Source of the DNA: Clostridiales bacterium
GTDB taxonomy: Bacteria > Bacillota > Clostridia > Christensenellales > CAG-138
Reading direction: 5' to 3'
Assembly: GCA_004554165.1 (NCBI GenBank)
Contig: SFNQ01000007.1
Location: 1,220-65,219, forward strand
DNA length: 64,000 bases
Positions 37,142-53,809 of the stretch are shown in pieces. The translations under genes were made by a program, and so were the position numbers. The stretch's first letter is position 1. Each line of letters begins with the position of its first letter. The notes under the pieces were generated by a model. That model saw only the letters and a program-made list of their open reading frames with translations. It was not told where the DNA came from and made no database searches.

Positions 37142-37333
37142 ATGGCACGAAACGGCGCATTGGTTCCTGAAGCGAAGTCCAAGATGAACAGTCTGAAGAC
37201 CGAGGTTGCGAACTCTCTGAACGTCAACCTGCAGCAGGGCTACAATGGCAGCCTGACCTCGCGTGAGGCGGGTTCCATCGGTGGCGAAATGGTGAAGCGC
37301 ATGATCGCTTACGCGGAAAACAACATGAACTAA
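37142..37333 (+). CDS. Small acid-soluble spore protein, alpha/beta type
   Basis: 63 aa, ..LVPEAKSKMNSLKTEVANSLNV..SREAGSIGGEMVKRMI.. is the SASP signature. AAGGAGG is the RBS. Confidence 0.9.
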   Translation: MARNGALVPEAKSKMNSLKTEVANSLNVNLQQGYNGSLTSREAGSIGGEMVKRMIAYAENNMN

Positions 37334-37403
37334 ACCATGAGTGACAGCCGGCGCAGCAAACTGCCAGGCAAAGAATAATACATGGAAGAAAGGAGTACCG
37401 AAC

Positions 37404-37595
37404 ATGGCCAGAAACGGAGCACTGGTTCCTGAAGCGAAGTCCAAGATGGACAGCCTCAAGACCGAGGTTGCGAACTCTCTGAACGTTAACCTCAAGCAGG
37501 GCTACAACGGCGACCTGACCTCGCGCGAAGCGGGTTCTGTCGGCGGCGAGATGGTGAAGCGCATGATCGCTTATGCGCAGACCAACATGAAATAA
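37404..37595 (+). CDS. Small acid-soluble spore protein, alpha/beta type (tandem paralogue)
   Basis: 63 aa, near-identical to the upstream copy. Confidence 0.9.
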   Translation: MARNGALVPEAKSKMDSLKTEVANSLNVNLKQGYNGDLTSREAGSVGGEMVKRMIAYAQTNMK

Positions 37596-37612
37596 ACAGT
37601 ACGACGATATAC

Positions 37613-37637
37613 GGGGCCGGCGCTCATGCGCCGGCCT
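37613..37637. repeat. Left copy of a 25-bp target duplication GGGGCCGGCGCTCATGCGCCGGCCT (contains a 9-bp-stem hairpin)
   Basis: Identical 25-mer at 37882-37906. Lies 18 nt after the SASP stop. Confidence 0.85.
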
Positions 37638-37881
37638 CAGAGTGTCGAAAAAGTGGCTGAACGCCACTTTTTCGAGCTTTCACAGGTTTTGCCTCTCCCA
37701 TTGTCTCCCGGGCGGCAAAACCCGCAAAGTACGAAAACCTCCGGGTTTTCATCCGTTCTGACGCACACCCCCCAGGGGGCCTTCTCTTGCCCCTGCGGGG
37801 CAATTCACCTTGTGTCGTCAGAGCCGGATGGAACATAAGGGGCTGCGGCCCATTATCAACCCCGGGGTTTTTCGACAGGCT
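37638..37881 (+). mobile_element. Structured TIR element, copy 2 (with a ~45-nt expansion in one hairpin loop)
   Basis: Collinear with 200-398. Same termini (CAGAGTGTCGAAAAA / TTTTTCGACAGGCT). Flanked by a 25-bp direct repeat. Confidence 0.8.
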
Positions 37882-37906
37882 GGGGCCGGCGCTCATGCGC
37901 CGGCCT
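37882..37906. repeat. Right copy of the 25-bp target duplication
   Basis: Identical to 37613-37637. Confidence 0.85.
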
Positions 37907-53253: not shown

Positions 53254-53375
53254 GGACGGCCGCCCCTTCGGACGGCGCCTGCTGCATTGGCGCCGCCCCC
53301 GCTGTCGCGTGCGCCTGAAATGTGGCCGGGAGAGCGGGGCTTTTCCGGCGGCAGAAAAACCAACCCGAAAGCACC

Positions 53376-53401
53376 TGAGCCGGCGCGGATGCGCCGGCTC
53401 A
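53376..53401. repeat. REP-like GC hairpin, family A (TGAGCCGGCGC-GGAT-GCGCCGGCTCA)
   Basis: Shares the core GCCGGCGC-N4-GCGCCGGC with the hairpin duplicated around element copy 2. Confidence 0.6.
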
Positions 53402-53548
53402 GTCTGTCCGGCGGCCGCAGCCTTTCGGCGGGCGGCGTCCCGGGTCTGACGGTATGGGCGGCAGAAGGGCCGCCCCCTCGAATTTTGCGCCCTGTGGTTT
53501 GTGATGCTGCCCGGGGTTAAAGCCCGCAGGACGGCAGGGAACAGAGCC

Positions 53549-53744
53549 GGGAGCTCGAAAAAACCTGGATTGTCAAGGGCCGCAGCCCCGGACCTTCCAT
53601 CCGCCGCTGGGGGCCTGTACGTCAGAAGGGATGATCCCCCTCGGGGGGTTCCCTTTTTCCGGTTTTGCCGCCATGAAACGTGCAGGGATTTTGGGCAAAA
53701 GCTGGTCTTTCAAAAAAGTCCGTCCGGACTCTTTTGACAGGCTG
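53549..53744 (-). mobile_element. Structured TIR element, copy 3 (diverged, inverted orientation)
   Basis: Collinear blocks match the reverse complement of copies 1/2: TCGAAAAA, GGGCCGCAGCCCC, TTCCATCCG, GTCAGAAnGGATGA, GGTTTTGCCGCC, GGCAAAA, AAAAAGT..ACT.TTT.GACA. Two hairpins are kept by compensatory changes. Confidence 0.6.
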
Positions 53745-53809
53745 AAGCGCCCCGGGCCCCTTTTTCGGCATACGGCTTCGGCGCGCCGGCCGTCCTCCGG
53801 GACGAGGAA

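Follow-up and report, generated by a model that had tools for sequence, protein, structure and literature searches.

What is the diverged hairpin-bearing repeat at the right-hand part of the 64,000-nucleotide stretch of DNA analysed here (the window), and is its fold under selection where it now lies? This locus holds the third copy of a repeat that occurs twice more in the window, and the preliminary description had read two of its stems as replaced in place by compensatory substitutions, with the fold itself maintained as RNA or single-stranded DNA. The repeat is a MITE (miniature inverted-repeat transposable element), a gene-less miniature transposon of ~199 nt (range 164–245 nt). Our preferred reading, to which we give a probability of roughly 0.6, is that copy 3 is a dead copy of this MITE, mobilized in trans by IS1182-family DDE transposases, and that the fold was kept for propagation of the element.

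Copy 3 is located where a DUF1538/P-II-like operon (+) and pgi (−) converge, in the spacer between them, in agreement with the convergent intergenic position described earlier. Once reverse-complemented, copies 1 and 2 are collinear with it, and every shared block listed previously is present on its plus strand. The three copies and the blocks, the latter read from the sequence, are as follows.

200–398 (−): copy 1, young subfamily A, between 18-bp duplicated host hairpins at 181–198 and 399–416
37638–37881 (−): copy 2, subfamily A with a 45-nt insert, between 25-bp duplicated host hairpins at 37613–37637 and 37882–37906
53548–53744 (+): copy 3, a diverged, immobilized subfamily-B member of the ~199-nt IS1182-type MITE, matched over model positions 1–199
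53555–62 (+): shared block TCGAAAAA
53577–89 (+): shared block GGGCCGCAGCCCC
53595–603 (+): shared block TTCCATCCG
53621–34 (+): shared block GTCAGAAGGGATGA
53661–72 (+): shared block GGTTTTGCCGCC
53694–700 (+): shared block GGCAAAA
53713–39 (+): shared block AAAAAGT..ACT.TTT.GACA

The preliminary description had staked its case on this similarity being significant, and it is far above chance. R1, a five-hairpin covariance model built from 19 seed sequences, copy 3 among them, scores copy 3 at 134 bits (E = 1e-38 to 3e-37), and an nhmmer search with a family profile, iterated from copies 1–3 as seeds, recovers it at E = 1.3e-30. Seed-independent blastn of copy 3 against the genome matches subfamily-A copies at E values of 1e-8 to 1e-10, and the 13-mer GGGCCGCAGCCCC occurs three times versus 0.45 expected. 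The global identity, put earlier at about 65–70%, is indeed 65% with copy 1 but only 57% with copy 2, with its 45-nt insert. The closest relatives of copy 3 are three other copies in the same genome (71–76% identity).

Alignment to R1 divides copy 3 into hairpins P1–P5 between two terminal repeats; the hairpins below are placed by this alignment.

53542–53563 (+): degenerate left terminal repeat, CAGAG-CCGGGAGC-TCGAAAAAA (from the sequence and the R1 alignment)
53573–53592 (+): hairpin P1, TCAAGGGC-CGCA-GCCCCGGA, with two pairs broken in copy 3
53606–53626 (+): hairpin P2, GCTGGGG-GCCTGTA-CGTCAGA, with its 5′ arm mutated and uncompensated
53633–53651 (+): hairpin P3, with a C5/G5 stem in place of GAAAACC/GGTTTTC
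53659–53704 (+): hairpin P4, CCGGTTTTGCC ... GGCAAAAGCTG, with an inner region and two pairs broken
53710–53737 (+): hairpin P5, TCAAAAAAGTCC-GTCC-GGACTCTTTTGA, also matching the subterminal hairpin of IS1182-type ends
53732–53744 (+): right terminal repeat TTTTGACAGGCTG (reverse complement CAGCCTGTCAAAA), intact (from the sequence and comparison with IS tips)

The left boundary of copy 3 is probably at 53542, where CAGAG is found, not at 53549, with a damaged left tip: 8 nt follow CAGAG where 2 are usual, a net insertion of 6 nt relative to the family consensus of the left terminal repeat (CAGAGTGTCGAAAAA or AGTCTGTCGAAAAA). The P1 loop CGCA is kept family-wide, and the 3′ arm of P5 overlaps the right terminal repeat. 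P3 has a T-rich run behind it and scored as terminator-like; a G/C-rich P3 of this kind is also present in the copy C57:78878. Both stem differences noted earlier are real. The second is GAAAACC/GGTTTTC to CCCCC/GGGGG; the first is better described as GTGGC/GCCAC to GTCC/GGAC, since the fifth pair drawn for it leaves a loop of 2 nt.

The window's genome (G000), a 2.28-Mb draft of 65 contigs from pig gut, contains ~80 nhmmer matches to the family and more than 60 true R1 matches. They include a young subfamily A of ~35 copies that are 90–97% alike, a subfamily B to which copy 3, C51:3307, C20:55727, C57:78878, C32:5854 and C38:27804 belong, and further forms diverged beyond both. Full copies have 14-bp terminal inverted repeats (AGAtTGTCGAAAAA ... 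TTTTTCGACActCTG; AGAtTGTCGAAAAA and TTTTTCGACActCT(G) in young copies). Nearly every young copy in this genome is flanked by a duplication of a complete GC-rich hairpin, 16–28 bp in length and different at each site. Hairpin duplications of 16–34 bp are found in G000 and, beyond its genus, in G013, G020, G014 and G006, and also around the subfamily-B copy on C51; the right-hand duplicate often carries a terminator T-run and the left-hand one usually does not. The MITE has no similarity to transposase by tblastx, and its length variants (the 45-nt insert and indels of 1–4 nt) are unlike those of a conserved reading frame. An Rfam 15 scan of the window at gathering thresholds gave no match, and a scan of nine copies gave five scattered sub-threshold matches to unrelated families, far below gathering scores.

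Several variants of the repeat were observed in the same genome. The 45-nt insert is found in the P2 loop of four subfamily-A copies (window 37638–37881 (−), and C50:15961–16203, C3:54475–54717 and C57:60306–60548); it folds as two GC hairpins, GCCCCGCAGGGGC and GGCCCCCTGGGGGG, and could have arisen by capture of a hairpin or as a mini-insertion nested in the element. Locus L041 (C6:30488–31261) packs four copies, head-to-tail or nested, into 800 bp, which fits the idea that every insertion makes two new hairpin targets. A 35-nt ‘solo’ element, CCTGTCGAAAAAGCA-GAAGT-TGCTCTTTTGGCAGG, consisting of tip, hairpin and inverted tip without the core, is located on C31 (−), ~376 nt from one end of the contig. 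Contigs C58 and C60 open with the same ~100 nt, including at 61–95 of each a P5-like hairpin, GCGAAAAAGTGGC-GTCG-GCCACTTTTTCGC, a repeat at contig ends. A promoter-like TTGATA-16-TATGTT (9/12) runs across P1 in copy 1 (window 376–349, −) and is confined to subfamily A. Finally, just upstream of copy 2 (window 37142–37597, +) is a tandem pair of genes for alpha/beta-type small acid-soluble spore proteins, which share 88% identity over 194 nt.

Of 41 related genomes, 13 contain the MITE. Both genomes of the same genus (G001 and G002) lack it, and it is present in 12 other genera of the family (within the range G003–G021), reaching at least 59 copies in G020. This patchy distribution points to horizontal spread.

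The tips of the MITE (CAGAGTGTCGAAAAAG...) match those of autonomous IS1182-family insertion sequences of Clostridia, a Clostridia-wide clade of elements 1.5–1.6 kb in length. We screened the 41 relatives for transposases using NF033551 (IS1182) and NF033563 (IS30). An element in G037 (L092) encodes a 453-residue open reading frame that scores 423.7 bits on NF033551 (cut-off 270), contains DUF772 and DDE_Tnp_1_6, and lies between two copies of a 24-bp host hairpin. It starts with CAGAGTGTCAAAAAAGGTCGC-TATGAT-GCGGTCTTTTTTG and ends with ...GGGGTTCTTTGACACTCTG, that is, CAGAGTGTCAAAAAAGG-hairpin and hairpin-CTTTGACACTCTG. The right end of the MITE, read as its reverse complement, is CAGAGTGTCGAAAAAGTGGC-TGAAC-GCCACTTTTTCG: the tip is identical to that of L092 in 15 of 16 bases and is followed by the same kind of hairpin. 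A search with the L092 transposase led to 136 confirmed relatives in contigs of public genomes, of which the best 80 were retained as loci (from Oscillospiraceae, Christensenellales, Syntrophomonadaceae and other Clostridia). Among these best 80 of 136, most loci have CAG(A/T/C)CTGTC(G/A)AAAAA tips, almost all have a hairpin of 13–17 bp just inside each tip, and 33 of the 57 with both ends in the locus are flanked by duplicated hairpins of 17–36 bp. IS1182-type elements and young MITE copies alike target GC-rich hairpins, most of them terminators, and leave the whole hairpin duplicated.

The subterminal hairpin of these insertion sequences has the A-run or T-run of the terminal repeat as its stem base. 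Its stem sequence varies by lineage and between the two ends of an element while the structure is kept, and stems of both the GTGGC type and the GTCC type occur among the autonomous elements. Judged by sequence, P5 is the subterminal hairpin of IS1182-type ends. At the opposite end of the MITE, AACCCCGGGGTT (palindrome CCCCGGGG) has the appearance of the second IS hairpin in collapsed form (AACCCCG...CGGGGTT in L092). The sequence common to the MITE and the insertion sequences is limited to the terminal 18–36 nt, and P1–P4 therefore form a MITE-specific core; a search for this core inside 65 IS1182-type loci with the covariance model, blastn and tblastx recovered tips only.

No parent insertion sequence was found in the G000 draft by scans for terminal inverted repeats, at contig ends or with NF033551, and NF033551 has no match in G000, G013 or G020. 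Draft assemblies often lose IS copies. An IS1182 transposase is present in 4 of 13 genomes with the MITE versus 7 of 28 others, so that presence of the family does not track the MITE, and the tip-matching autonomous elements come from other families and orders than the MITE host. Movement of the MITE in trans by an IS1182-family transposase is therefore inferred from the tips only.

Other partners were considered and set aside. NF033563 (IS30) matches 8 of the 41 genomes, of which only G000 (a fragment) and G016 have the MITE, and no matching tips were found. The IS1182 elements found in G014 and G016 lack a matching hairpin, and their tips (CAGACCGTCCGAAAA), though related, are different. An assignment of the P5 end of the MITE to the left end of the insertion sequence was dropped, because which end carries which hairpin type differs between IS subclades. 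Separately, some autonomous IS1182-type copies (L153, L154, L156, L172 and others) lie between two different hairpins and not within a duplication; these mismatched flanks could result from recombination between copies, or from an IS1272-style ‘inverted-repeat-replacing’ mode.

The fold was assessed on two alignments. In a structure-blind MAFFT alignment of 19 copies, all from G000, 95.1% of cells are paired compared with 38–51% in slid controls, and nine pairs have changed on both sides versus 4.8 in shuffles, a number reached by 1 shuffle in 500. For the second alignment, 70 copies drawn from 12 genomes were fitted to the fold with the covariance model, a procedure that may overstate pairing and count G:U too often relative to A:C; here 95.4% of 3061 cells pair, versus 72.5% when shuffled and 39–54% when slid, and both sides have changed in 43 of the 47 pairs. 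The covariation score for these 70 copies is 0.546 versus 0.168, with none of 500 shuffles as high and all helices contributing. The five hairpins of R1 thus covary, in the smaller alignment and far more strongly in the larger one.

Stems are swapped between genera in a manner that is easily followed by eye. P2 occurs as TCTGACG/CGTCAGA, TTCGGCG/CGCCGAA and TGCGGCG/CGCCGCA, and P4 as CAGGTTTTGCC/GGCAAAACCTG, CAGGAACCGCC/GGCGGTTCCTG and CAAGGGCGGCT/AGCTGCCCTTG. Loops and linkers stay conserved while the stems swap, the P2 loop being CATGTG or GCTTTGC. An outer P2 stem, ATCCG/CGGAT, is conserved in sequence without covariation (470 of 500 shuffles as good) and was dropped; because it failed the same test, the covariation test is not passed automatically. 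A helix proposed by RNAalifold around P1 (CCGGG/TCCGG), a competitor of this outer P2 stem, was likewise dropped.

On the strand that reads AGTCTGTCGAAAAA..., we counted G:T and A:C pairs as one event per pair position and genome. The G:T to A:C ratios are 20:7 for P1, 13:5 for P2, 8:5 for P3, 23:6 for P4 and 10:10 for P5, in total 74:33 (p = 9e-5). This excess of G:T on one strand fits single-strand folding, in line with the earlier suggestion of a fold in RNA or single-stranded DNA.

Private and shared variants place the constraint in time. Among 27 young subfamily-A copies, shared variants number 0.14 per paired versus 0.37 per unpaired column (p = 0.002); singletons number 0.42 versus 0.56 (p = 0.2, in a test of low power), and pair-breaking changes acquired after insertion comprise 17 G:T and 16 A:C. 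These values fit stems that are constrained in propagating lineages and decay neutrally after insertion, when constraint is not detectable. As the constraint is found between propagating lineages and not in private mutations, selection acts on the mobile element and not on a function at the locus, and the fold therefore most likely serves the spread of the element. The copies favour neither orientation, whether judged against neighbouring genes (11 co-directional, 15 opposed and 18 convergent, with a crude gene call) or against replication direction (22 versus 24 by GC-skew strand). The earlier proposal that the fold is under selection thus stands at the level of the family, but not as maintenance or function at the locus of copy 3.

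Copy 3 itself has the properties of a relic. Of its 47 pairs, 37 are Watson–Crick, 3 are G:T and 7 are broken, compared with a family mean of ~5% broken; copy 3 has therefore not maintained its hairpins in place, contrary to what its description had suggested. The broken pairs fall in P1, P2 and P4 in the R1 alignment. One of the P3 pairs is broken in the window's genome and retained by most other populations, and the variant 53635 T>A, found in other metagenome populations, restores the P3 pair broken in the window's strain. Nor were the two stems replaced at this locus: both stem versions are common to the subfamily-B copies C51, C20:55727 and C57:78878, and P3 and P5 were therefore inherited in these forms.

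We searched for a flanking duplication around copy 3 and found none. The site is filled, with single-nucleotide polymorphisms and small indels, in four of four independent gut metagenomes, and no empty-site form was seen. The missing duplication had been taken as a sign of an old insertion, and this fits a copy that is fixed in four metagenomes and mutated at its left tip. In the same-genus genome G001, the P-II gene faces a GNAT gene instead of pgi, and the orthologous site is not syntenic. As part of our preferred reading, copy 3 would be an old, dead MITE copy that inherited its subfamily-B stems, then lost its left tip and flanking duplication, and has since undergone neutral erosion in the P-II/pgi spacer.

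Directly upstream of copy 3 is a stretch with weak collinear matches to R1 (P2 at 53440–53465, E = 0.0014; P1 loop at 53413–53422, E = 0.046).

53375–53480 (+): a host-type hairpin (53375–53398), then AGTCTGTC, a P1-loop-like GGCCGCAGCC and a P2-like TCTGACGGTATGGGCGGCAGA (from the sequence and the R1 matches)

This stretch is probably the stump of a further copy, comprising its 5′ third. A right-end-like CCTTTTTCGGCATAC at 53760–53776 may belong to the same stump.

How, then, would the fold serve the element? In our preferred reading it would be needed in cis for propagation, most likely as hairpin-shaped DNA or single-stranded DNA that is recognized by a hairpin-reading transposase. P5 would double as a two-way terminator, insulating the element from host transcription, and the fold would not be kept for a host function at individual loci. 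The role of P1–P4 in propagation is putative. Against this reading, a strand-specific fold is not obviously expected of a cut-or-copy DDE transposon and suits a role in RNA equally. A DNA-level and an RNA-level role of the fold are not separable with the present data, and an RNA reading explains the bias of P1–P4 and the symmetry of P5 equally well.

A bolder proposal, which we consider possible but hold only tentatively, is that the five hairpins are a structure code read by the DDE transposase, which would recognize a hairpin or cruciform at its own ends, at the target and in the MITE core. Cuts at the two bases of the hairpin would then account for duplication of the whole hairpin, P1–P4 would be extra landing or recruitment hairpins that compete for transposase made elsewhere, and the one-strand G:T bias would indicate a single-stranded stage. 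In a variant of this proposal, the core would be an RNA module that moves about and re-creates a stable mRNA 3′ end at each new site.

The main rival, which we regard as unlikely, is that the fold acts in cis as RNA. The MITE would then be a ‘polite’ mobile 3′-end module that restores termination and protects the upstream mRNA, and lineages with a good fold would survive insertion. Transcripts entering from the left would cross P1–P4 and stop at P5, and those entering from the right would stop at P5 immediately. The confinement of the G:T excess to P1–P4, with P5 symmetric, is what one-directional transcription of the core and a two-way terminator would produce, and P5 indeed combines a GC stem with an A-run and a T-run. 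The terminator-like score of P3 in copy 3 is consistent with this rival, as are insertion sites that are themselves terminators, with a left duplicate that usually lacks a T-run. However, insertion is unbiased in orientation relative to the terminated gene, constraint on the stems after insertion was not detectable in the low-power comparison above, and termination needs fewer than five hairpins with conserved loops. A 158-nt RNA contig covers 53583–53740, from P1 to P5, and its right end is within 4 nt of the right end of the element, as the rival would have it; but this is a single unstranded contig from one of four pig-gut metatranscriptomes (run X25), at a low depth like that of pgi, and it may be read-through or DNA.

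It is improbable that the paired changes are unselected, arising by quasi-palindrome template switching or by capture of different host hairpins and being exaggerated by a model-fitted alignment. The element does live among hairpins and regenerates two per insertion, nested and tandem copies exist (C6:30488–31261), and the 70-copy alignment is model-fitted. However, the hairpins are collinear, with loop and linker sequences conserved across 12 genomes; covariation is also present in the MAFFT alignment; the neighbouring stem ATCCG/CGGAT failed the same test; and inserted copies gather uncompensated mismatches that are not corrected. Least probable of all is that P1–P4 are a trans-acting or host-useful non-coding RNA gene that IS1182-type ends picked up and dispersed: the strong covariation and conserved loops across genera (P1 CGCA; P2 CATGTG or GCTTTGC), a core unrelated to the IS interior, an sRNA-like layout with terminator-like P5 at its 3′ end and the promoter-like site over P1 in subfamily A would suit such a gene, but the window and nine copies match no Rfam family, the promoter-like site is not conserved outside subfamily A, the covariance-model search with R1 found no core-only (P1–P4) locus, and the repeat has tens of copies per genome, is patchy enough to be missing from two same-genus genomes and decays once fixed.

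Bacterial MITEs and repeats such as Correia/CREE, RUP, BOX, ERIC and bcr1 of the Bacillus cereus group are short, gene-less, multi-copy and intergenic, with terminal repeats borrowed from insertion sequences and hairpin folding when transcribed; compensatory changes are on record for some bcr repeats. The present MITE shares their size, lack of genes, copy number, intergenic position and IS-derived terminal repeats. It differs from them in that its duplication is a whole hairpin of variable length and in having a row of five local hairpins that covary across genera in place of one long terminal-repeat hairpin. IS200/IS605 elements and their PATE derivatives use an HUH transposase, insert beside a short specific sequence with a bias to the lagging strand, and have no duplication or terminal inverted repeats. 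They resemble the MITE in their subterminal hairpins and in strand-specific folding of one DNA strand; the MITE, however, has no lagging-strand bias.

Closer parallels are found within the IS1182 family. IS1272 and the composite TnSha1 of staphylococci insert into terminator hairpins, with partial deletion or replacement and no duplication (PMC4923244, PMC5678879). They share with the present clade a DDE transposase (DUF772, DDE_Tnp_1_6, NF033551), terminal inverted repeats, and DNA hairpin or terminator targets that have no primary-sequence consensus and are used in both orientations. By contrast, the present clade duplicates the whole hairpin (17–36 bp), and the MITE has no transposase gene and carries a four-hairpin core that is not found in the autonomous elements. 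IS1630 of Mycoplasma fermentans, an IS30-family element, is reported to duplicate variable inverted repeats (Calcutt et al. 1999, PMC94219; cited in PMC7648426). It differs from the MITE in its transposase family, in being autonomous and in its tips, which do not match. A MITE of this kind is already known; what is unusual is how deep the covariation in its core goes, and that its autonomous relatives have terminal hairpins whose structure is conserved.

Hairpin targeting by IS1182-type elements is likewise already documented, and this family provides a clean natural data set on its mechanism: exact hairpin duplications at dozens of insertions, autonomous relatives with structure-conserved, sequence-variable hairpins at both ends, and a MITE with four extra hairpins that covary across genera. 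R1 also makes recognizable a repeat that is very abundant in gut Clostridia and that, given its covariation, could otherwise be mistaken for a new regulatory RNA. If the fold is necessary for mobilization, a DDE transposase would be reading DNA shape rather than sequence, which would explain why the length of the duplication equals that of the hairpin.
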